From assembly GCA_035689365.1 (NCBI GenBank), contig DASSLP010000136.1, forward strand, positions 1 through 59,575: a stretch of DNA of 59,575 nt, written 5' to 3'. Position numbers and translations under genes: made by a program. Source of the stretch: Methyloceanibacter sp. GTDB lineage: Bacteria; Pseudomonadota; Alphaproteobacteria; Rhizobiales; Methyloligellaceae. How positions within the stretch are numbered: the stretch's first letter is position 1; each line of letters opens with the position of its first letter. Below, one piece after another: positions 18,438 through 32,320 of the stretch. A model generated the notes under the pieces. The model saw nothing but the letters and a program-made list of their open reading frames with translations, was not told where the DNA came from and searched no databases.

Positions 18438-21400
18438 CTACGGGCCGAAGATGCTGATCCCCTTCTTCCACGCATCAGGGGCCTCACGAGGAGCGCTCAG
18501 GGACCGGCGCGGCCGGCTTGAGGAGCGCTGACGCGGCGGTGCCGCCACATCGGCGGCGGCTGCGGTCGGTTGAGCCTCAGTGCTCGCCGCCGCGTCGGGC
18601 GTTGGCGTAGGCAACGGAGGCTCTTCCGGAGAAGCGATCGCCGGGGCAGCCGCAGCAGGCTGAGCCTCCGGCGAAGGCAACGGAGCTTCTGCCGGCGCGG
18701 CTACCGTCGGGGCAGAGGGCGGTGAAGCCTCCGGCTCGGCAGTTTCAATCGGCGGAGCGGCAGGCGGTGAAGTCTCAGGCTTGACAGCTTCGGCGGGCGG
18801 CGCCGAAGCCTCTTTCGGCTCGGCGATCGTAGGGGCAGAGCGCGGTGAAGCCTCGGGCTCGGCAGCTTCAATCGGCGGAGCGGCAGGCGGTGAAGTCCCA
18901 GGCTTGGCAGCTTCGGCGGGCGGCGCCGGAGTCTCTTCCGGCGCGGCGATGGTTGGGGCAATGGGCGGTGAAGTCTCAGGCTCGGCAGCCTTGATCGGTG
19001 GAGCGACCGGTAAAGCCCCGGGCTTGGCAGTTTCGGCGGACGGTGCGGGCGCCTCTTGCCCTGACGGCTCAGCAGACGGCTCTCCCGCGGGCTGATTGGC
19101 AGGATCGGCCAACACCCGCGCGATGCCGTCACTCTCCTCGGGCTGTGCTGGCGCTTCCTCACGCGCCTCTGTGGGAGTGGGCGCCACGTCGGCCGAGGAC
19201 GCCGGGGCCGATTGCGGCAAAGCCTCCTGAGGCTGCTCGGTCTCGGCGCGGGGGCTCGGCTCGCTCGGCTGCCCGGCTTCCACCGGCGGCTCGGGAGGCG
19301 GGCTCTCGGCCGCCGGGCCGGTATCGTCAACGGGCGGCTGCGTCTTGCCGCTCACGTCAAGCGTCTCGAGACGCTCAACGTCCTCCCGCATACGGCGCAT
19401 GGTGAGATAGCTCTCGATCGCACCGGTATCGATGGAAGGCGAAATCGCGTCAGCTTGGCTGAGGGCCCCCGCGAACACGAGTGTCACCGGCGGCACGTCC
19501 TGGTTTTTGCCACCTGCGAGATTTACAGCCCATTCGCTGTCGAGCTTGAGGCTTGCAAGCTCGACATAACCGTTGATCTTGGTCACACCGGTCGGACTCG
19601 CCAGCGTGGTCGGCGCAAGCCGGAGCGTGCCGCTCTTGATATCGAAGGCAAGCTTCACCGGGCCATATTTGTAAATGCCCTTGGTGACCTTGTCCCTCAC
19701 GGTGCGCGCTTCCTCGGCGATCTGCTCTCTGTCGACCTTGATCCGCGTGTTGGAGGCGACCACCGCCACGCGGCGAAGCGGATCTGGATTTAGCGCGAGC
19801 ACTGCGCCGGGCCCAAGCGACAGCGTACCCTCTCCACTCAGTCCCGCCACAAGGCCGGGGGGGCTTAGGCCCTCACCCTGAAGGTTGAAGGCGAGATCGA
19901 ACGGGCCCTTGGCGAGACTATTGTCGAAGATGCTCTTCGAGAGATCGTCGAGCTTGCCTCCGGCAATCTCGGCATGAGCCTTGAGATCGGCACCGGCGCC
20001 GAGTGGCGTCAGGCTTCCCGACGCCGCGAATGTCCCGCCGAACAGGTGCCCCGTGAGGCTGGTGACGTTAAGCCCGTTCTTGTCGACGCGGCCGGTAAGC
20101 GTGGCGCCCGTGACTTGAAACGGCTCTCCAAGCGCGAGCTTCCCCGTGCTCAGCGTGATGTCACCTTCGGAATTCTCGATGATGCCAAGCGAGAAGCCCC
20201 GCGACGGCCACACCTCGGAGGCGCCAGCGCCGATCGCGCCAAGCATCTCCTCGGTCGATGGCGTGCGCTGCCAGGCGACCAGGAGTCCGAGCAGAGACGG
20301 CAAGGAGACGCTGTCGGCGCTTGCCGCGAGCTTGAAGCGAGTCTTGCTTCCGTTTTTGTCGAAATGCGCGCTTCCTGCGACAGCCTGGCCTGCGACCATG
20401 CCCTTCACGCCGGTCAGGTCGATACTCGGTCCTTGCTTGACGAGGTCGGCGCGAAGGCTGAGCGGGACGCCGGCGGCCGAAGGCGGCGCTTCAAAGCCTA
20501 CCAGCATGAGAGCAAGGCTCGCATCTTTGCTCGTGGCGGAGCCTTTGCCTGCAAGCGCAATCCCGCTCTCTTGCAATGAGCCCTGGCCTTCGAAGGCAAT
20601 ATCCATCGTCGCGGTGGCGAGCTCGGCCTTGCCGACAACCTTGGTCTTCGGCACGCCGGCAAGATTGACGGAGAGCTTGCCCTGGCTTCCGCCTGAGGCC
20701 GCGGCGAGGCGCTCGGCGGGCAGATCAGGGAAGAGGAGGACAAGGATCGCCTCGGGGCGCGCCCCGGTGACGCTGCCGTCGAGGTCGATCTTGGCTTCGC
20801 TGAGCTTGGCAGGCTCGCCCACCGCATGCGCGGCTAGCGCTATGCCTGACCCGCCGGCTTGGCCGCCAAGCTGCACGGAGGCCCTGGTCGCATCGCCTTC
20901 ACGGCCGGCAACGAGTCCAACATGAAGATCGAGCGGAGCGAGGCTCGCAAGATGCGGCGATTTGGTCACGCTGTCGGGCAGGCCAAACAGACCAGAGGCG
21001 ATGTGCAGACTGTCGGGCGTCGAAGCCTTGAGCGCGAAATCGACGCGTCCCGAAGGCGCCTCGCTTAGCTGCTCGATCCGGCCTTTGCCGTTGAACGCGA
21101 TCGCGGAGCCCGCGGCAAAGTCGAGCTGTTCGACGTCGAGCGTGCCATTGATGAGCGAGAACCGCGCACCGAGCTTGCCGGCGGGAATGTTGGGGAGCAG
21201 AAGTTCACCTACCCGCAAGGTCACACGCACATCGTCATCGCGGAACTGGCTGAGCAGGTTCTGCTCCTCGGTGGGGGCAGCTTGCGGCGTGGGCGCCACT
21301 GCTGGCGTTGACACCTCCGGCATCCAGGACCGCCAGATCGGTCCGTCGCCGATCATGTCCCTCAAGTCGAGCCGGTCGCTGTCGAGCGAAAGCTCGATCA

Positions 21401-22922
21401 GGCTCCGCGCGCCGCCCTGAAAGCGCAGATCGCCGCGGAACTTGGTTCCACTTAGCTCACCGGTGGCTTCCGCGAGCTTGAGCTCGCCGTCGCCGACCTT
21501 GGCCATGCCTTGCAGGCTGAATTCGCCGGTCGAAACTTGCCCTGAGGTGTCGCGGTCGCCCGCCGCCCAGCGGGTCAGCGGTCGAAGGCCTGAGCCCGCG
21601 ATCTTGATGGGACCGGTGAACACCGGGCCAAAATCGCCATGGGTCAGGCGGCCCGAGGTTTCGATATTGTTGCCGCCCGGCAGCACGGCCTTGAGCCGCT
21701 CGACCTTGAGCCCGCCGTCCTGTGTTGAAAGAGCGAGATCGATAGTGCCGATGAGGTCGCCGCCAAGGCTCGCCTGCTCGAGGTTGACGGCAAGGCTCCC
21801 CTCTCCAAATCCTGCCGCCTCACCGAGGGCCTGGTCGGCAAACGCATAAAGCACCGCCGCGGGAGATGGCTGCACCTGTGCGCCCGGCGCACCGAACAGA
21901 AGATCGAGATCGACGAAACTCGCGGTGACCTCACCTGTCGTCTTGAACCGATCGGCATAGTCGAACGTGAGCTTGCCCTTGAGCAGCTGCGGATGGCCAT
22001 TGGAATGGATAGTGAGATCGAAATCGGAAAGTTCGGCCGCTTCCGGTGTCGCCTTGAGCGGGCCCTTCAATTCGAGCAGCGATGATTTGTCAGCCGGCTG
22101 CGAAGCTGCTTGTTGCTGTTGGTCTTCGTTTGCAGGCTCGCTCTCCTCCTCGGCCTCGCCGCCTGGCGCGGCCTTGGCCACACGCACGACGATGTTGCCG
22201 TCATAAACGAGTTTGCCTCCGAGTCCCGTCACGCCGCCATCGAGGAGATAGGCGGTGTTGCGCTCGGGATCGCGCAGCGACGACTTGACTCTGAACAGGC
22301 CGGAAGCATCGGGCTCGCTGGTCGAGAAGCGAAGCTCCTGTGTGCGTCCCTCGAATTCATAGGTAGCTGAGACCTTGTAGGGTCCGGACAAGGACTGGGC
22401 ACTTGCCGCACCATTGACCTTGCCGAGGGTCAGCCGCGGCGCGCCCTCCTTGGTGATCTCGACACGGCCGCCGCTCACATTGACCGAATCGAGCATCACG
22501 TCCTTTGGCGCGAAGGGAAGAGCAACGCCACGGCGGCCGACATCGCTCCAATTGCCGGTGCCGTCGGCCTTGACGTCGAGACGCAACACCGGATCGACGA
22601 TGGAGATCTGCTTCGCCTCCATGCCGCCGCTCATCAGAGCGCCGATGTTGAGCCAGGCCTCGACCGAGCGGGCCTCGAGGAACGGACGATCAAGCAGCCC
22701 CTGCTGGTCGGCAACCTTGATGTCGTCGAATCTGAGCTCAGGCGCGGGCAAGAGGACGAGGTGCACCTCCCCGCCGACCTTGACCTGGCGGCCGAGCAGC
22801 TTGGTCGCTTGCGTCTCGAACACCGGGCGGTAGTCGTTCCAGTCGATAAAGAGCGGCGCGGCAAACAGCGCGCTCAGCACCAAGATCAGAAATGCCGTCA
22901 AACCGAGCAGAAATGAGTTCAC
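18438..22922 (-). CDS. Large AsmA-family envelope protein with a Pro/Ala/Glu-rich tail
   Basis: N-terminal TM anchor followed by APLFIDWNDYR..FETQA..LLGR, a long beta-rich body and a low-complexity C-terminus; 1494 aa. Confidence 0.88.
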   Translation of the reverse strand: MNSFLLGLTAFLILVLSALFAAPLFIDWNDYRPVFETQATKLLGRQVKVGGEVHLVLLPAPELRFDDIKVADQQGLLDRPFLEARSVEAWLNIGALMSGGMEAKQISIVDPVLRLDVKADGTGNWSDVGRRGVALPFAPKDVMLDSVNVSGGRVEITKEGAPRLTLGKVNGAASAQSLSGPYKVSATYEFEGRTQELRFSTSEPDASGLFRVKSSLRDPERNTAYLLDGGVTGLGGKLVYDGNIVVRVAKAAPGGEAEEESEPANEDQQQQAASQPADKSSLLELKGPLKATPEAAELSDFDLTIHSNGHPQLLKGKLTFDYADRFKTTGEVTASFVDLDLLFGAPGAQVQPSPAAVLYAFADQALGEAAGFGEGSLAVNLEQASLGGDLIGTIDLALSTQDGGLKVERLKAVLPGGNNIETSGRLTHGDFGPVFTGPIKIAGSGLRPLTRWAAGDRDTSGQVSTGEFSLQGMAKVGDGELKLAEATGELSGTKFRGDLRFQGGARSLIELSLDSDRLDLRDMIGDGPIWRSWMPEVSTPAVAPTPQAAPTEEQNLLSQFRDDDVRVTLRVGELLLPNIPAGKLGARFSLINGTLDVEQLDFAAGSAIAFNGKGRIEQLSEAPSGRVDFALKASTPDSLHIASGLFGLPDSVTKSPHLASLAPLDLHVGLVAGREGDATRASVQLGGQAGGSGIALAAHAVGEPAKLSEAKIDLDGSVTGARPEAILVLLFPDLPAERLAAASGGSQGKLSVNLAGVPKTKVVGKAELATATMDIAFEGQGSLQESGIALAGKGSATSKDASLALMLVGFEAPPSAAGVPLSLRADLVKQGPSIDLTGVKGMVAGQAVAGSAHFDKNGSKTRFKLAASADSVSLPSLLGLLVAWQRTPSTEEMLGAIGAGASEVWPSRGFSLGIIENSEGDITLSTGKLALGEPFQVTGATLTGRVDKNGLNVTSLTGHLFGGTFAASGSLTPLGAGADLKAHAEIAGGKLDDLSKSIFDNSLAKGPFDLAFNLQGEGLSPPGLVAGLSGEGTLSLGPGAVLALNPDPLRRVAVVASNTRIKVDREQIAEEARTVRDKVTKGIYKYGPVKLAFDIKSGTLRLAPTTLASPTGVTKINGYVELASLKLDSEWAVNLAGGKNQDVPPVTLVFAGALSQADAISPSIDTGAIESYLTMRRMREDVERLETLDVSGKTQPPVDDTGPAAESPPPEPPVEAGQPSEPSPRAETEQPQEALPQSAPASSADVAPTPTEAREEAPAQPEESDGIARVLADPANQPAGEPSAEPSGQEAPAPSAETAKPGALPVAPPIKAAEPETSPPIAPTIAAPEETPAPPAEAAKPGTSPPAAPPIEAAEPEASPRSAPTIAEPKEASAPPAEAVKPETSPPAAPPIETAEPEASPPSAPTVAAPAEAPLPSPEAQPAAAAPAIASPEEPPLPTPTPDAAASTEAQPTAAAADVAAPPRQRSSSRPRRSLSAPREAPDAWKKGISIFGP
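18680..19050 (-). repeat. Three degenerate tandem copies of about 120-123 bp (40-41 aa) in the AsmA tail
   Basis: The anchor CAG(C/T)TTCGGCGG recurs at 18785, 18908 and 19028. The peptide unit is AEAAKPGTSPPAAPPIEAAEPEASP... Confidence 0.85.
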
Positions 22923-23013: not shown

Positions 23014-24429
23014 TCATGCTAACGCAAAAATCTTACCAGGATTGAGGATATTCAAAGGGTCGAGCGCCTTTTTTATGGCAATCATGACCTCGACTCCGGA
23101 CCCGTGCTCGGCCCTGAGATAGGAAATTTTGCCTTCTCCGACCCCGTGCTCGCCCGTGCAGGTCCCGCCGAAGCCAAGCGCCCTTTCAATTAGCCTATCG
23201 AGGAAGGCCTGCACCTTAAGCCTCTCCTCGGCATCGGCAGGGTCGATCAGCGGCATGACGTGGAAGTTGCCATCGCCGACATGGCCTACGATCGGCGCGA
23301 GCAAGCCGAGGGAATCGATGTCGCGGCGTGTTTCGGTCACGCAGTCGGCAAGTGCCGAGATCGGTACGCAGACATCGGTCGAGAGCACCTCTGCGCCAGG
23401 CCTGAGCCCGCGGGCTGCCCAATAGGCATCGTGGCGGGCCTGCCAGAGCTTGTTGCGGTCCTCGGGCCGCTCGGCCCACTTGAAGTCTCCTCCCCCTTCG
23501 CCGCGAGCGATCTCTGCAAAGGTCTCGACCTGCTCGCGCGCGCTTTGCGCTGTGCCGTGGAATTCGAGAAAGAGCGTCGGAACCTCCGGCAGGCTGACAT
23601 GCGAATAGGCGTTGCAGGCACGGATCTGCACCTCATCCGCAAGCTCGATGCGGGCAAGCGGCAGACCCATCTGCAGCGCGGCGATCGTGGCGTTGCAGGC
23701 GCCAGCGATGGAGGTGAAGGGGCACACCGCCGAGAGAATCGTCTCAGGGATGCCGTAGAGCTTGAGCGTGAGACCGGTGATGATCCCGAGCGTTCCCTCA
23801 GAGCCGACCAGAAGCCGGGTGAGGTCGTAGCCCGCGGAAGATTTTCGGGCCCTGCCCCCGGTCTTGATCACGCTGCCGTCGGCAAGAACGGCTGAGAGTC
23901 CGAGCACCAAATTGCGCATGGTGCCATAGCGCACGGCATTGGTACCGGACGCGCGCGTCGCCGCCATGCCGCCAAGACTGGCATCGGCGCCTGGATCGAC
24001 GGGGAAGAACAGGCCCGCGTCGCGCAGGTGATCGTTAAGCTGCTTGCGGGTGACACCGGGCTCGACCACGCAATCGAGGTCTGCCTCGTGCACCGCGACG
24101 ATGCGGTTCATGCGCGAGAGATCGAGCGAGACGCCGCCGAAGGGCGCGTTGACATGGCCTTCAAGTGAGGTGCCGGTGCCAAAAGGAATTATCGGCATGC
24201 GCGACGCCGCGCAGAGCTTCACGACATCCGAGACGTCGGCCTCAGATTCGGCGAACACGACGGCGTCGGGCGGTTCGCATCCGAGCCAGGTGAGAGTGTT
24301 GGCGTGCTGCTCGCGCAGAGCCTGGCTTGCCGAGAAGCGGTTGCCGAAACGTGCGGCAAGAGCGGAAAGTACAGCCTTCTTTCCCTCGCCCTTGGGGCGT
24401 TGCACTGCCTTGGCCAGACCTGCGGTCAT
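23014..24429 (-). CDS. FAD-linked oxidase, D-lactate dehydrogenase/GlcD-like
   Basis: PFGTGTSLEG, GTNAVRYG, GSEGTLG, GHVGDGNFH, GEHGVG and DPLNILNPGK. Confidence 0.92.
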   Translation of the reverse strand: MTAGLAKAVQRPKGEGKKAVLSALAARFGNRFSASQALREQHANTLTWLGCEPPDAVVFAESEADVSDVVKLCAASRMPIIPFGTGTSLEGHVNAPFGGVSLDLSRMNRIVAVHEADLDCVVEPGVTRKQLNDHLRDAGLFFPVDPGADASLGGMAATRASGTNAVRYGTMRNLVLGLSAVLADGSVIKTGGRARKSSAGYDLTRLLVGSEGTLGIITGLTLKLYGIPETILSAVCPFTSIAGACNATIAALQMGLPLARIELADEVQIRACNAYSHVSLPEVPTLFLEFHGTAQSAREQVETFAEIARGEGGGDFKWAERPEDRNKLWQARHDAYWAARGLRPGAEVLSTDVCVPISALADCVTETRRDIDSLGLLAPIVGHVGDGNFHVMPLIDPADAEERLKVQAFLDRLIERALGFGGTCTGEHGVGEGKISYLRAEHGSGVEVMIAIKKALDPLNILNPGKIFALA

Positions 24430-24480
24430 GGCCCGCATCTATAAGCTGATTTGCAGGGAAATGCCTGGGGGTTTTCGGGA

Positions 24481-25122
24481 TCAAATACCGGCCACGCCAA
24501 GCACCGCCGCGTAGTGGCAGCTCGCCGCCGTCAGCACAAAGCCGTGCCAGATGGCGTTCTGATAAGGCAGCCTCTCCCACAGGTGAAACACTACGCCGAT
24601 GGTGTAGAGCACGCCGCCGAGTCCCAGCAGAATCGCGACCCAGGTCGGCACCGCCGTCACCAGCGGGTGCCAGGCTGCGACAATCGCCCAACCCTGTATG
24701 AGATAGAGGCCCACCGTGAGGCCCTCGAGATAGCGCGGGAAAAGAAGCTTGATGGCAATCCCGATGGCGGCGATGGACCACACCACGGCGAGCAGTCCCA
24801 AACCCCAGGTGTTGTGCATCTTGATCAGGACGAACGGCGTGTAGGTGCCGGCGATCAGGAGAAAAATCGCGGCGTGATCGAGGCGGCGGAACACTTCCTT
24901 GAGCTTCGGTCGAACCGGAAGCGAGAGATTATAGCCCGCGGAGCACACGAACATCGCAACCAGCGCAAGGCCGTAGATCGCGAGGCTCACGCCCCATAGC
25001 AGCATCTGCGACTGGACGCCGATGATGAGGAGAGCGGTCAGCGCGATGAGACTCGCGGTGACGCCGATGATGTGGATGCATCCATCGGCAATGCGCTCAC
25101 CAAGGGTGTATTGCGGGAACAT
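24481..25122 (-). CDS. Hemolysin III/PAQR (TrhA-like) membrane protein
   Basis: RRLDHAAIFLLIAGTYTPF and AIWHGFV with 7 TM segments. The start may be 25164. Confidence 0.92.
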   Translation of the reverse strand: MFPQYTLGERIADGCIHIIGVTASLIALTALLIIGVQSQMLLWGVSLAIYGLALVAMFVCSAGYNLSLPVRPKLKEVFRRLDHAAIFLLIAGTYTPFVLIKMHNTWGLGLLAVVWSIAAIGIAIKLLFPRYLEGLTVGLYLIQGWAIVAAWHPLVTAVPTWVAILLGLGGVLYTIGVVFHLWERLPYQNAIWHGFVLTAASCHYAAVLGVAGI

Positions 25123-25226
25123 GACGCTGCCCAGATCGCTAAGCCGGTTCAATCCGTCTACCACTTAAGTCTGAAAATCAACTTAGCAAGCCATGTGGCA
25201 AGGATGAGGCGCATTGCCGCTCAACA

Positions 25227-25625
25227 TCATGGCCGAGGTATTCCTTGGCCACAAGCAGCCGAGCCAGTGGTGCAAACATAGGGCACGACCACGCCAGTGA
25301 AGCAGGTCGTGTAGAACTGGAAGGTAACGATGTCGGGCTTGATCTGCGCGTCGGCAGGGACACCGTTCGGTCGAACCGCCTTCCAAAACGGATCGCCCTT
25401 CACTCTGTGGGCATACAGGGTGAGGTAGGCCCAACCCCTCGCGCGCTTCAGTTGATTGGCGCTTTGAACAACAAGCGCCTGCGAGGTGTGGGCCGCCTCA
25501 GCCGGCGAGGCCTCGCTGGCCGTGGCCGTCACCAATTGGCAGGCGGCTTGCGCGAGCCCAGGGCTGCATAGGCTCAATCCCAAGATGCCAATTGAAGTGA
25601 AGCCGATCCGCAAGGCGTGAAGCAT
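25227..25625 (-). CDS. Secreted hypothetical protein, paralog B (132 aa)
   Basis: GGGAG RBS, signal peptide ending AQA-A, 4 mature-region Cys, and a C-terminal block near-identical to the neighbouring gene. Confidence 0.85.
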   Translation of the reverse strand: MLHALRIGFTSIGILGLSLCSPGLAQAACQLVTATASEASPAEAAHTSQALVVQSANQLKRARGWAYLTLYAHRVKGDPFWKAVRPNGVPADAQIKPDIVTFQFYTTCFTGVVVPYVCTTGSAACGQGIPRP

Positions 25626-25662
25626 CTTGCTTCTCCCGGTTGCCCGACGCGGGGGGCCCTGG

Positions 25663-26055
25663 TCAGCGGGCTCCGCAGACGGTTGAGCCTGTCGTACAGA
25701 CATAAGGCACGACAACGCCAGTGAAACAGGTCGTGTAAAAGCGCGACGTGACGAGATCGGGCTTGAGCTGCGCGTCGGGCGGCACGCCGTTCGGCCGAAC
25801 GGCCTTCCAGAACGGATCGCCCTTCACTCTCCGCGCGCTCATGGACATGTAGCTCCAGCCCCTGGCGCTCTTCAGTTGATAAGCGCTCTGGACAGCAAGC
25901 GCGCGCGAGCTCGCTGCGGCTTCAGTTTTGGAGGGGGCGCTATGGGTCGCCGTGATCAGCTGGCAGGCGGCTTCGGCGGACCCCATTCCGAATGAAGCAA
26001 ACGTAAACCCGGCAACTGCAAGCACAGCAACAGCCATCCTCAAAAATTGAAGCAT
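25663..26055 (-). CDS. Secreted hypothetical protein, paralog A (130 aa)
   Basis: GGGAG RBS, signal peptide ending AEA-A, 4 Cys; paralogous to 25227..25625. Confidence 0.85.
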   Translation of the reverse strand: MLQFLRMAVAVLAVAGFTFASFGMGSAEAACQLITATHSAPSKTEAAASSRALAVQSAYQLKSARGWSYMSMSARRVKGDPFWKAVRPNGVPPDAQLKPDLVTSRFYTTCFTGVVVPYVCTTGSTVCGAR

Positions 26056-26383
26056 GTCCCGTCTCCCAACTGAGGTGAAGTATGGCGTCTTGTTAGCCGG
26101 TGCGTCCTTGCGCACGCAACCGCCATAACAGACTTTTTCTGCGGTTTGTTGTCAAATTAAAGCTCGGAATTTTGCCCCATCGCGACACCGCGCCGCTCGC
26201 GCCCAAAACTTGATCACTGTCAGTGCACGGATGCACTCTCCAAGCGCATTGCCCCAGCGGGCGCTCCGCACATGGAATTTCCCGCAAGCGCGCTCGATAT
26301 AGGTCTTGAGAGCCCGCGCTTGCCCCCTACATCTCGGCGCTCTTTTTTTGCCGATTGCGGCCAATGGTATAGTTTTGGATTCG

Positions 26384-28720
26384 ATGACAAAGATTCGCGC
26401 CTCAGCCGTTGCTTTGCCTTCACCCGAACACGAGCAGCTCTCCACGTCGGAGCGGGCCATGCGGCGGGGGCCAAGTCACTATCTCGATGCGCTCAACCCC
26501 GAGCAGCGCGAGGCAGTCGAGACGCTCGACGGGCCGCTGCTCGTGCTGGCCGGCGCCGGCACCGGCAAGACGCGCGTGCTCACCACCCGCATCGCCCATA
26601 TTTTGAGCTTGGGCCGGGCGCGTCCGTCTCAGATTCTCGCAGTTACCTTCACCAACAAGGCCGCGCGCGAGATGAAGCAGCGCATCGGAGAGCTGATTGG
26701 CGGCGTGGTCGAAGGCATGCCTTGGCTCGGCACCTTCCACGCCATCGGCGTCAAGATCCTGCGCCGCCATGCCGAGCTCGTGGACTTGAAGCCATCCTTT
26801 ACCGTGCTCGACACCGACGACCAGATCAGGCTGCTCAAGCAGTTGCTCGAAGCGGAGAATATCGACGAGAAGCGCTGGCCTGCGCGTCTTCTCGCCTCGA
26901 TGATCGACGGCTGGAAGAATCGAGGCTTGCGGCCGGAGCGCGTGCCCGAGGGCGAGAGCTTCGCCTTCGCCAATGGCCGCGCGCGCGACCTTTACTCGGC
27001 TTATCAGCGGCGGCTGAAGGAGCTGAACGCCGCCGATTTCGGCGATCTGCTCTTGGAGAATCTGCGGCTGTTCCAAGAGCACCAGGATGTGCTGGAAAAA
27101 TACCAGCAACGCTTCCTTTACATGCTGGTCGACGAATACCAGGACTCAAATGTCGCGCAATATCTCTGGCTACGCCTGCTTGCCCAAGGCAATGGGAATA
27201 TTTGCTGCGTCGGCGATGACGACCAGTCGATCTATGGCTGGCGGGGCGCCGAGGTGGACAACATTCTCAGATTCGAGACCGACTTTCCCGGCGCCAAGAT
27301 CATCAGGCTCGAACGCAACTACCGCTCCACCGGGCATATTCTCGGCGCGGCCTCTGGGCTGATCGCCCATAACAAGGGCCGTCTCGGCAAGACGCTCCGC
27401 ACCGACGGCGAGGCTGGCGACAAAGTCCTGGTCGAGGGCTGTTGGGACGACGAGGAGGAAGCGCGCGTCATCGGCGAGGACATTGAGCAGCTCCAGCGCC
27501 AAGGTCATGCTTTGAGCGAGATCGCCATTTTGATGCGCGCCTCGTTCCAGATGCGCGCCTTCGAAGACCGCTTCATCACGCTCGGCCTGCCCTATCGCGT
27601 GATCGGGGGTCCGCGCTTCTATGAGCGCCAGGAGATCAAGGACGCCACTGCCTATTTCGAGGTGACGCTCAATCCGGCCAACGATCTCAAATTCGAGCGC
27701 ATCATCAATGTGCCGCGGCGGGGCCTTGGCGAATCCAGCCTCAAATCTCTTCACCAGCTTGCGCGGGCGCACGGCGTGCCGTTGTTTCAGGCTGCGCGGT
27801 TGATGATCGAGACCGAGGAGCTGAAGCCTAAGGCACGCAAGGCGCTCGCCGATCTGATTGCAGCCTTCGACCGCTGGCGCTCGCTGATCGACACCATGCG
27901 TCACACCGAGCTTGCCGAACTGATCCTCGATGAGTCCGGCTATACCGGCATGTGGCAGGCCGAGCGCTCGCCACAAGCGCAGTCGAAGCTCGAAAACCTG
28001 AAAGAGCTGATCCGCTTCATGGAGGAGTTCGACACGCTGGCCGGCTTCCTCGAGCACGTGGCCCTCGTCATGGATGCGCAGACCGAGGAAGGCGCAGACC
28101 GCGTCAACCTGATGACGCTGCATTCAGCCAAGGGTCTCGAATTCGATACAGTATTCCTTCCCGGCTGGGATGAAGGGTTGCTTCCGCATCAGCGGAGCCT
28201 CGATGAGGCAGGCCGCTCAGGGCTCGAAGAGGAGCGCCGGCTGGCGCATGTCGGGCTTACGCGCGCAAGGACCCGCGCCAAGATCACCTTCGCCCAGAAC
28301 CGCCGCACACGCGGCACTTGGCAGACGGCATTGCCGTCACGCTTCATCGACGAATTGCCGGTCGAACATGTCGAAGTCGCGGAGGACAAGGGTCTACGCG
28401 GCTATGGGCCGAGCCGCTTCGACACGGCGGAGAATCTATTCGCGAGCGGTTTCTACGAGACGCCGGGGTGGCAGCGCGCGCAACGCAACCGGCCGCGCGG
28501 CGGTGCGCCGCAAGCGCCGCGCCGCGAGCCGATCACCATCGACGGCACGCTGGTCGCAGCGAGCACCGCGGAAGGCGCAGGGCTTAAGATTGGCATGCGG
28601 GTGTTCCACCAGAAATTCGGCTATGGCCGGGTGGCCCATGTCGACGGCAACAAGCTCACCGTCGATTTCGATAAGGCAGGGCAGAAGAAGGTGGTCGACA
28701 CCTTTATCGAGCGCGCCTGA
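26384..28720 (+). CDS. uvrD: UvrD/PcrA-family DNA helicase
   Basis: LAGAGTGKT, LVDEYQD, VGDDDQSIY, LERNYRS, LMTLHSAKGLEF, EERRL and a C-terminal Tudor-like RVFHQKFGYG. An extended -10 TGGTATAGT lies at 26365-26373. Confidence 0.96.
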   Translation: MTKIRASAVALPSPEHEQLSTSERAMRRGPSHYLDALNPEQREAVETLDGPLLVLAGAGTGKTRVLTTRIAHILSLGRARPSQILAVTFTNKAAREMKQRIGELIGGVVEGMPWLGTFHAIGVKILRRHAELVDLKPSFTVLDTDDQIRLLKQLLEAENIDEKRWPARLLASMIDGWKNRGLRPERVPEGESFAFANGRARDLYSAYQRRLKELNAADFGDLLLENLRLFQEHQDVLEKYQQRFLYMLVDEYQDSNVAQYLWLRLLAQGNGNICCVGDDDQSIYGWRGAEVDNILRFETDFPGAKIIRLERNYRSTGHILGAASGLIAHNKGRLGKTLRTDGEAGDKVLVEGCWDDEEEARVIGEDIEQLQRQGHALSEIAILMRASFQMRAFEDRFITLGLPYRVIGGPRFYERQEIKDATAYFEVTLNPANDLKFERIINVPRRGLGESSLKSLHQLARAHGVPLFQAARLMIETEELKPKARKALADLIAAFDRWRSLIDTMRHTELAELILDESGYTGMWQAERSPQAQSKLENLKELIRFMEEFDTLAGFLEHVALVMDAQTEEGADRVNLMTLHSAKGLEFDTVFLPGWDEGLLPHQRSLDEAGRSGLEEERRLAHVGLTRARTRAKITFAQNRRTRGTWQTALPSRFIDELPVEHVEVAEDKGLRGYGPSRFDTAENLFASGFYETPGWQRAQRNRPRGGAPQAPRREPITIDGTLVAASTAEGAGLKIGMRVFHQKFGYGRVAHVDGNKLTVDFDKAGQKKVVDTFIERA

Positions 28721-28813: not shown

Positions 28814-28861
28814 CTTCGCGGGGGCGGCGGGTGGTGAATGCACGTGATGAGGGAGATGCCT

Positions 28862-29131
28862 ATGCGTGCCGCTATCGTCTTCGTTCTTGGCTTGTTCCTG
28901 CTGCTCACCATGTCTGTTGCTTATGCCGACGACGCCTGCCGTTGCCGTGGCTGCGGCTGCAAGGGCGGTCCAGCCTGGCGCGGGTCTGATGGGCTGTGCG
29001 TGTCCAAGGCCTCGCTCGCTAAGGTCTGTGGCACGCCGGCTGGAGCGCCGTGCAAACAGGAGTCGGCAACACGCGTCTGCTTCGGCGGGCAATCCGCGCT
29101 GGCCGCCCCGAAGCCGGCGCAGCCGCAATGA
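28862..29131 (+). CDS. Small secreted Cys-rich hypothetical protein (89 aa, 8 Cys)
   Basis: GAGGGAG RBS, signal peptide ending AYA-D, then CRCRGCGCKGGPAWRGSDGLCV...VCG...C...C. Confidence 0.8.
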   Translation: MRAAIVFVLGLFLLLTMSVAYADDACRCRGCGCKGGPAWRGSDGLCVSKASLAKVCGTPAGAPCKQESATRVCFGGQSALAAPKPAQPQ

Positions 29132-31964: not shown

Positions 31965-31995
31965 CCGGCTCGCCTCATGTTTATTGAATGAAAAT

Positions 31996-32026
31996 CGTGG
32001 ATGGCCGGGCCAAGCCCGGCCATGAC
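31996..32026. repeat. REP-like palindromic element (Hyphomicrobiales type), single arm
   Basis: CGTGG ATGGCCGGGC CAA GCCCGGCCAT GAC, a perfect 10-bp stem with a terminal TGAC. Confidence 0.8.
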
Positions 32027-32065
32027 AGTGTTCGCCCGGCCAAAAGTCCCTTAAGAGGGGAAGAG

Positions 32066-32320
32066 ATGTCGACCGAGATCCTCGTCTCCGCTGCGGCGGC
32101 CACATTGACCACGGCTGCCTTCGTGCCTCAGGCGCTGCACATCATCCGCTACAAGGAGACGCGGGCGATCTCGCTCGTCATGTACGTCGCGTTCGCTTCC
32201 GGTGTCGCGTTCTGGCTCCTCTTTGGCTGCCTGATCGGCAACTGGCCGATCATCGTGTCTAATGCCATCACGCTTGCGCTTGCACTCGCCATCATCGGCA
32301 TGAAGCTGAAATACGGATGA
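32066..32320 (+). CDS. SemiSWEET/PQ-loop transporter
   Basis: LTTAAFVPQA...TRAISL and W..G....WPII..N; 84 aa with 3 TM segments. Confidence 0.92.
   Translation: MSTEILVSAAAATLTTAAFVPQALHIIRYKETRAISLVMYVAFASGVAFWLLFGCLIGNWPIIVSNAITLALALAIIGMKLKYG

Follow-up and report, generated by a model that had tools for sequence, protein, structure and literature searches.

Tandem paralogous genes of Methyloceanibacter encode predicted exported four-cysteine members of an undescribed small protein family

The window analyzed here, a stretch of 59,575 nucleotides from Methyloceanibacter sp., harbors two adjacent minus-strand genes, designated A and B, which an earlier sequence-only reading had described as a tandem pair of secreted four-cysteine proteins, each with a GGGAG ribosome-binding site, a signal peptide of the AxA type and a mature N terminus ACQL(I/V)TAT. 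All of these elements were found at the positions given below, together with the neighboring genes and a conserved upstream element.

25663..26055, minus strand: gene A, encoding a 130-aa precursor, plus stop codon (open reading frame and translation; start set by the GGGAG site and by homologs starting with MLxxLR)
25227..25625, minus strand: gene B, encoding a 132-aa precursor, plus stop codon, 65% identical to A (open reading frame, translation and BLASTP)
26063..26067, minus strand: ribosome-binding site GGGAG of A, with the ATG 7 nt downstream (read from the sequence; invariant in 8/8 aligned upstream regions)
25633..25637, minus strand: ribosome-binding site GGGAG of B, with the ATG 7 nt downstream (read from the sequence)
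25969..26055, minus strand: predicted signal peptide of A, residues 1-29, ending in AEA (by inspection; a low-pLDDT helix in the model)
25545..25625, minus strand: predicted signal peptide of B, residues 1-27, ending in AQA (by inspection)
25684..25830, minus strand: conserved C-terminal module of A, residues 76-124, comprising the loop RVKGDPFWKAVRP and the modeled strands b3-b5 with C110 and C120 (BLASTP, family alignment, model and dN/dS)
25260..25406, minus strand: conserved C-terminal module of B, residues 74-122 (BLASTP and dN/dS)
26116..26156, minus strand: conserved upstream element TTTGACAACAAACCGCAG-N-GCGGTTGC, 41 nt, approximately 60-100 nt upstream of A (conserved in 8 orthologous upstream regions)
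24481..25164, minus strand: HlyIII-family membrane protein, downstream of B and possibly cotranscribed with it (Pfam PF03006, E 1.4e-27)
23014..24438, minus strand: FAD-linked oxidase of the D-lactate dehydrogenase type (Pfam)
18438..22922, minus strand: AsmA-family protein, 1494 aa (Pfam)
26306..28720: divergent UvrD helicase (Pfam)

Longer versions of the two open reading frames, beginning at GTG 26115 or TTG 25715, are unlikely because homologs start at the MLxxLR motif. The same-strand genes are separated by gaps of 37 nt (A to B), 62 nt (B to the HlyIII gene) and 42 nt (HlyIII gene to the FAD-linked oxidase gene). Two further features of this neighborhood deserve mention in their own right. 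The C-terminal third of the AsmA-family protein encoded at 18438-22922 on the minus strand consists of a long low-complexity repeat rich in Pro, Ala and Glu (APxxEAxKPExSPPxAPxIxAxEPE...), and a 97-aa open reading frame downstream of uvrD (28838-29128, plus strand), with a hydrophobic N terminus, a Cys-rich mature part (CRCRGCGC...) and no Pfam match, may encode a further small exported Cys protein.

By inspection, the signal sequences of A and B are composed of a basic n-region, a hydrophobic core and an AxA c-region, with predicted mature N termini at AEA/ACQLITAT (A) and AQA/ACQLVTAT (B), the slash marking the cleavage site. A corresponding pattern, MLxxLR followed by 15-20 hydrophobic residues and then AxA, was recognized by eye in nearly all of 41 genome-derived family members. 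Both products are, therefore, predicted from these motifs to be exported by the Sec pathway and cleaved by signal peptidase I one residue ahead of the first Cys. A lipoprotein identity was considered and rejected, as no lipobox of the form [LVI][ASTVI][GAS]C is present, the residues preceding the Cys being A-E-A-A, A-Q-A-A, A-Q-A-D, A-A-A-K or A-Q-A-R; position -3 before the Cys is occupied by E, Q, D or N, and position -1 by K, R or D in several members. A type IV pilin-like identity, which would call for a short basic leader, a G|FTLxE prepilin cleavage motif and an N-methylation domain, was likewise discarded: the AGFTFAS segment of A has no Glu at +5 and follows a 15-residue hydrophobic stretch, the motif is absent from B and from most members, and no pilin or N_methyl Pfam model matched at E <= 1.

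The products of A and B are identical at 83 of 128 aligned positions (65%; BLASTP E 8e-58), a similarity far beyond chance. Within the block RVKGDPFWKAVRPNGVP...VCTTGS, 44 of 49 residues are identical, the five changes being P/A, L/I, L/I, S/F and R/Q, which reproduces the count given in the sequence-only reading. The four Cys residues (C31, C110, C120 and C127 in A) are invariant in 56/56 aligned members and in 26/26 members of a wider set. Nei-Gojobori estimates for the A/B comparison yielded a dN/dS ratio of 0.20 over the whole length (dS 1.35, dN 0.26), 0.26 for residues 30-75 (dS 1.16, dN 0.30) and 0.07 for residues 76-127 (dS 1.03, dN 0.072), ratios which are rough because dS is saturated (approximately 1 in each segment) and which nonetheless lie clearly far below 1. 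The purifying selection suspected by the earlier reading is thereby borne out, and orthologous pairs, analyzed by the same method, gave dN/dS values of 0.05-0.25. Because the synonymous divergence of the C-terminal block is as high as that elsewhere in the genes, it is selection, rather than recent gene conversion, that maintains the block.

A maximum-likelihood tree of 41 mature domains resolved two deep clades, of which the first (26 rows, including A and B) ends in ...VCG[NQ] and the second (15 rows, including a copy from contig C13 of the same genome) in ...VCW. Two other genomes possess their own orthologs of A and of B (tree support 97/80 and 100/96), and the A/B duplication is, therefore, older than those species. 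The source genome contains four family loci in total, namely, A, B, the copy at C13:1423-1788, which shares 38% identity with A, and a fourth, frameshifted one on contig C36. The last of these (C36:26609-26960, plus strand) is located between the PanB and MinC genes and is distributed over two reading frames with a break near 26712-26719; the break reflects either pseudogene formation by frameshift or an error in the assembly of the metagenome-assembled genome (MAG).

Methyloceanibacter is a widespread genus of soil and sediment methylotrophs growing on methane-derived carbon. With A as the query, family matches were obtained in 24/24 genomes of the same genus (1-7 matches each), with adjacent family pairs in at least nine of them. 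Sixteen genomes representing other families of the same order were also searched; 15 gave no match, and the sole hit was a stop-ridden one at E 0.0026. A profile built from 56 sequences matched in 8/8 genomes of the genus, in 0/292 genomes from 128 other genera of the order and in 0/400 genomes from 307 other genera of the class; the counts for order and class are samples, and the absence holds for the genomes searched. An exhaustive HMMER search of 1.84 billion representative proteins returned 209 sequences at E <= 1e-3, 126 at 1e-10 and 21 at 1e-30, many of the 209 representatives being fragments. Of 1155 candidates from a word-indexed protein search, 1005 clusters matched at E <= 1e-3; the 120 clusters listed carried neither a Pfam domain nor an informative name, and the labels encountered among the clusters listed were two of Methyloceanibacter sp., one of Actinomycetota (a MAG) and one of "PilV" (P0117). 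In a genome search with a VCW-clade profile, the best 80 of 207 loci were each at least 61% identical to the contig C13 paralog; the record titles of 27 of these 80 name Methyloceanibacter, among them M. methanicus R-67174 and M. superfactus R-67175, the remainder bore mostly higher-rank labels, and other names occurred on four short MAG contigs. The family is thus genus-restricted, multicopy and often tandem, the genus being Methyloceanibacter by record names.

Divergent full-length members retain the four Cys residues, P81 and an ending of the form ...KPDxVT...YTxCWxGVxxPxVCTSGxKxC. Some divergent metagenomic members (P0150, P0176 and P0211) add an N-terminal CxxxC or CxxxxC motif, and in two VCW-clade loci (L034:149-538 and L035:138-527) the long loop described below is extended by 8 inserted residues, CFNIWCGI; judged from the sequences, the additional Cys pairs of such members would form further disulfides on the same scaffold. 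Fused forms were not found, the single longer match being an overcalled open reading frame.

The sequence-only reading recognized no family for these proteins, an assessment with which all searches agree. Neither Pfam nor NCBIfam contains a family matching A or B at E <= 1, and a Pfam search with 14 divergent members returned subthreshold noise only, e.g., DUF7311 at E 0.013. No PHROGs family was matched, the nearest being an Rz-like spanin at E 0.094 whose similarity was confined to the signal peptide, and PADLOC returned no match. The best match of a PDB sequence profile search, a SAGA-associated factor at E 0.068, was judged to be due to chance. The ESM Atlas contained the family's own unnamed clusters only, with no usable named cluster, Rfam gave no match across positions 24000-27000, and a literature search for Methyloceanibacter hypothetical proteins with a signal peptide found none. 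A and B, therefore, represent an undescribed small protein family with no evident multigene system, and the designation of the pair as the best candidate for an undescribed system was, in the latter respect, overstated.

AlphaFold2, supplied with the family alignment, modeled the precursor with a pLDDT of 84.4 (above 90 for the mature part) and the mature domain alone with a pLDDT of 92.6 and a pTM of 0.81. The model consists of one long helix packed against a five-stranded sheet and comprises, in precursor numbering, b1 (30-40), a 23-residue helix (43-65), b2 (69-74), a 21-residue loop (75-95), b3 (96-102), b4 (107-111) and b5 (118-129). The most conserved motif of the family, DPFWKAVRP, is carried by the loop 75-95. 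As strands 31-40 and 118-127 are of equal length and the hairpin 107-112/118-123 is in register, C31 would lie opposite C127 and C110 opposite C120; two disulfides are accordingly predicted from the model, one joining the N terminus to the C terminus (C31-C127) and one stapling the b4-b5 hairpin (C110-C120). The pairing of N- and C-terminal Cys residues proposed in the earlier reading would fit this modeled strand register. The mature domains are basic, with a median pI of 9.6 and values above 8.3 in 38/41 members, one member having a pI of 5.6.

Structural comparison identified no relative of this model. Foldseek found no match in the PDB (best E 0.37 for the full model and 0.63 for the mature model) or in a viral library (best E 0.34), and VIA-align, applied to 48,161 chains, gave best Z scores of 6.0 and 5.9, to the IKe g3p pilus-binding domain, with none at Z >= 8. 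Lower-ranking neighbors included DUF74, RcsF, dodecins, HP1454, BP26, Lpp20 and YdgH, and in every case, the IKe domain included, the alignment spanned only 60-75 residues. Since all of these neighbors fall under the noise level for unmatched models, which the tool states to be Z 7-8, the fold offers no functional lead. The modeled domain appears to be a helix-on-sheet sandwich of a generally widespread type, for which no relative could be identified.

Among these neighbors, RcsF (PF16358), an outer-membrane stress-sensor lipoprotein of the Enterobacterales, was examined further because it possesses four Cys residues with similar C-terminal spacing. The two have in common a small exported alpha/beta domain with one Cys near the domain start and three clustered C-terminally (109/118/124 in RcsF versus 110/120/127 here). 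The structural match to RcsF (2y1b) is weak and within the VIA-align noise (Z 5.8, rmsd 3.1, 66 residues; Z 5.2, rmsd 2.4, 62 residues), and no sequence relation exists: when the family profile was aligned with E. coli RcsF by hhalign, the probability was 0.14%, A and B had no PF16358 match at E <= 1, and the Pfam RcsF model found nothing in the whole source genome, with the E. coli control being positive. Unlike RcsF, the family has an additional conserved 21-residue loop, an additional strand and no lipobox. RcsF contains two nonconsecutive disulfides, a pairing different from that suggested by the model here, namely, a consecutive hairpin staple together with an N-to-C bond.

The dodecins, which form flavin-storage dodecamers, would share a b-a-b-b core with the model (VIA-align Z 4.9-5.7 over 61-65 residues, under the noise level; Foldseek E 1-3, with a TM score of up to 0.46 when normalized to the shorter dodecin chain). 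They differ in being approximately 65-70 aa long, only some 60% of the family domain aligns, and no Pfam match connects the two; dodecins are not known to possess a signal peptide or disulfides. The YhcN/DUF1471 proteins (BhsA and YdgH), Lpp20, HP1454 and BP26/SIMPL resemble the present family in being lineage-restricted, multiparalog, signal-peptide-bearing small envelope proteins, with VIA-align Z values at noise level (YdgH 4.3 and 3.8; Lpp20 4.3 and 4.5; HP1454 5.3 and 5.5; BP26 5.4 and 4.9). These groups are set apart by the absence of any Pfam or NCBIfam match at E <= 1 and of any PDB sequence match, and they are not known to feature the invariant four-Cys pattern or the DPFWKxVRP loop.

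Family loci from 18 relatives, one per genome, were compared, of which 14 displayed the neighborhood uvrD, family gene, and HlyIII or oxidase gene, and four were situated elsewhere in the genome. The HlyIII gene directly follows the family gene in 11 of the 14 shared-neighborhood loci, and in the other three (L041, L042 and L043) HlyIII is absent and the oxidase gene directly follows; since HlyIII is missing in three genomes of the genus, its linkage is not fixed. Cotranscription of the pair with the HlyIII gene, as suggested by the earlier reading, is possible, given the shared strand, the 62-nt gap and a single RNA-library contig spanning that gap, but an obligatory association is contradicted by the three loci without HlyIII. 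Tandem family genes occur in 4 of the 14 loci, and a single copy occurs in 10. Other paralogs adjoin unrelated genes (AraC/DJ-1, CysNC, SDR and MFS, or PanB/MinC), and none of the examined paralogs was flanked by a gene for an usher, a chaperone, a sortase or any secretion or assembly function. Clustering of the neighbors of the best 80 of 207 loci from the VCW-clade search linked no gene family across paralog classes; by analogy with the contig C13 locus, the top neighbor clusters of those 80 loci are read as probable SDR/family gene/MFS/HlyD-type synteny. Synteny inside one genus is expected from ancestry and does not establish a functional link.

The element at 26116-26156 contains the inverted repeat ACCGC-N17-GCGGT, and a matrix derived from the eight upstream regions identified it as the sole site in the genome scoring above 18 bits. 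It may serve as a promoter or 5' leader of A and is not a regulon motif. A promoter scan of the locus returned no promoter-like sites. A terminator scan returned three terminator-like sites. Those at 25719-25706 and 25295-25282 were dismissed, each falling within the coding motif GVVVPYVC that A and B share as homologs; the remaining one, at 24500-24488, is situated at the 3' end of the HlyIII gene.

The sequence-only reading had counted absence of expression against its own proposal; transcription of a syntenic gene is documented in the RNA-seq data of PMC6417678 (supplementary file 10), in which M. caenitepidi Gela4 was grown in methanol pure culture or in coculture with a methanotroph. GL4_1593, a 381-bp hypothetical coding sequence located between uvrD and the D-lactate dehydrogenase gene and assigned to the family by synteny and size, is transcribed in this cultured species and increases approximately 2-fold in coculture, from 177 to 359 RPKM (log2FC 1.0, FDR 3.7e-9; PMC6417678, supplementary file 10). 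Its neighbors gave 101 RPKM in pure culture and 74 in coculture (uvrD) and 105 and 88 (D-lactate dehydrogenase) in the same file (PMC6417678). Three further genes, identified from the positions at which the family matched in a single complete genome of this genus, rose from 62 to 86 RPKM (GL4_0175, log2FC 0.47), from 83 to 145 (GL4_2976, log2FC 0.80) and from 96 to 193 (GL4_2977, log2FC 0.99) in that supplementary table (PMC6417678). The main text of PMC6417678 mentions neither GL4_1593 nor hypothetical proteins and leaves the other three genes undiscussed as well.

Parts of A, B and the HlyIII gene are represented, at 90-99% identity, among contigs from soil RNA libraries (runs X15-X18), and one such contig bridges the gap between B and the HlyIII gene. 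Because a 16-kb stretch is likewise covered by these runs in 18-29 of its 30 bins, their signal is compatible with carried-over DNA; it adds little and does not permit a ranking of genes, and uncovered parts carry no evidential weight. Elsewhere in the window, in three of the four RNA libraries, the summed depth is very high over a segment of approximately 30 nt at 31996-32026, situated at the start of an open reading frame (31988..32320, ...GRAKPGHD...), and loose ends occur at either flank. Searches for tRNAs and Rfam families gave nothing for this segment, which looks like a short, widely repeated element common to many organisms.

Several explanations may be considered for the role of these proteins. 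The sequence-only reading favored structural subunits, whereby A and B would form hetero- or homo-oligomers and assemble into a disulfide-held fiber, surface layer or other polymer, and the recurrence of tandem pairs in the genus (4/14 shared-neighborhood loci), the beta-rich ends with invariant Cys residues and the presence of oligomeric dodecins among the weak fold neighbors are consistent with such a role. However, the model is that of a compact single domain (pLDDT 92.6) in which all four Cys residues are positioned for intramolecular pairs, 10 of the 14 loci possess one copy, assembly functions of the kinds listed above are absent beside the examined paralogs, and neither repeats nor fusions were found; surface-layer proteins are, moreover, usually far larger. 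The compactness of the model, the occurrence of single-copy loci and the missing assembly genes speak against a fiber, a surface layer or an obligate heteromer, and we regard structural subunits as quite improbable. A secreted inhibitor or antagonism factor, in which the loop would plug a foreign enzyme such as a lysozyme or peptidase or would strike competitors, with biotic interactions driving family expansion, would suit small, basic proteins with predicted export and predicted disulfide stabilization, a genus-specific and expanded family, and transcripts increasing about 2-fold in the presence of a methanotroph partner (PMC6417678, supplementary file 10). Against it, selection is strongly purifying and the putative contact loop is the most conserved part of the protein, which is not the pattern of arms-race proteins; neither an immunity-like gene nor a target gene was recognized in the vicinity, and PADLOC and PHROGs gave no match, such that this role, too, is given a low probability.

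Somewhat better placed, though still unlikely, is a function in envelope stress akin to that of the RcsF sensor or the YhcN/DUF1471 proteins (BhsA and YdgH), in which the proteins would report or buffer outer-membrane damage. This would accord with the RcsF-like number and spacing of Cys residues, the weak fold neighbors RcsF (Z 5.8 and 5.2) and the YdgH C-domain (Z 4.3 and 3.8), the lineage-restricted, multicopy nature of the family, the location of the envelope genes HlyIII and AsmA downstream, and the increase in coculture of all four Gela4 paralogs examined (log2FC 0.47-1.0; PMC6417678, supplementary file 10). The Z values are, however, under the noise level, the profile comparison and the Pfam RcsF model gave no relation, no lipobox is present, the strand register favors a Cys pairing other than that of RcsF, and synteny within one genus does not establish a functional link. 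Finally, the notion that A and B are nonfunctional, being chance open reading frames or decaying copies, draws on the frameshift in one of four source-genome copies (contig C36), and it retains virtually no probability in view of the dN/dS of 0.05-0.25 between orthologs, the presence of the family in 24/24 genomes of the genus, the confidently predicted fold and the transcription of GL4_1593 in a cultured species (PMC6417678, supplementary file 10).

We propose instead, with a probability of roughly 0.5, that A and B are tandem paralogs of a genus-restricted group of exported, disulfide-stapled proteins of approximately 100 residues which likely serve as stand-alone soluble binders in the envelope rather than as fiber subunits. 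According to this proposal, the precursor would be exported by Sec and cleaved at the AxA site, whereupon the mature chain would fold into a compact alpha/beta domain (b1-helix-b2-long loop-b3-b4-b5), likely with two disulfides. The protein would then remain soluble in the envelope, either periplasmic or at the cell surface, and act alone. The exposed, conserved loop D80-P-F-W-K-x-V-R-P88, aromatic and basic in character, may constitute the working surface of the basic domain and may bind an envelope component that is itself conserved and probably anionic. Duplication into A and B would have given rise to two specialized copies rather than to an obligate heteromer, although the tandem pairs recurring in at least nine genomes would also be compatible with heteromers. 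A more far-reaching idea, to which we assign only a slight chance, is that the paralogs of this genus-specific family, having a fold without a solved equivalent, assemble on the cell envelope and mediate how the methylotroph interacts, physically or metabolically, with methanotroph partners; the rise in coculture of all four copies examined in the Gela4 data would suit this idea (PMC6417678, supplementary file 10).

Orphan families confined to a single lineage are common, and the practical value of the present one is modest pending a phenotype. Given a confident model with no close solved relative, determination of its structure and localization would yield a new small-domain family. A family that is under strong selection, occurs in all genomes of the genus searched and was found in none searched outside it would, furthermore, represent a lineage-defining envelope trait of Methyloceanibacter.
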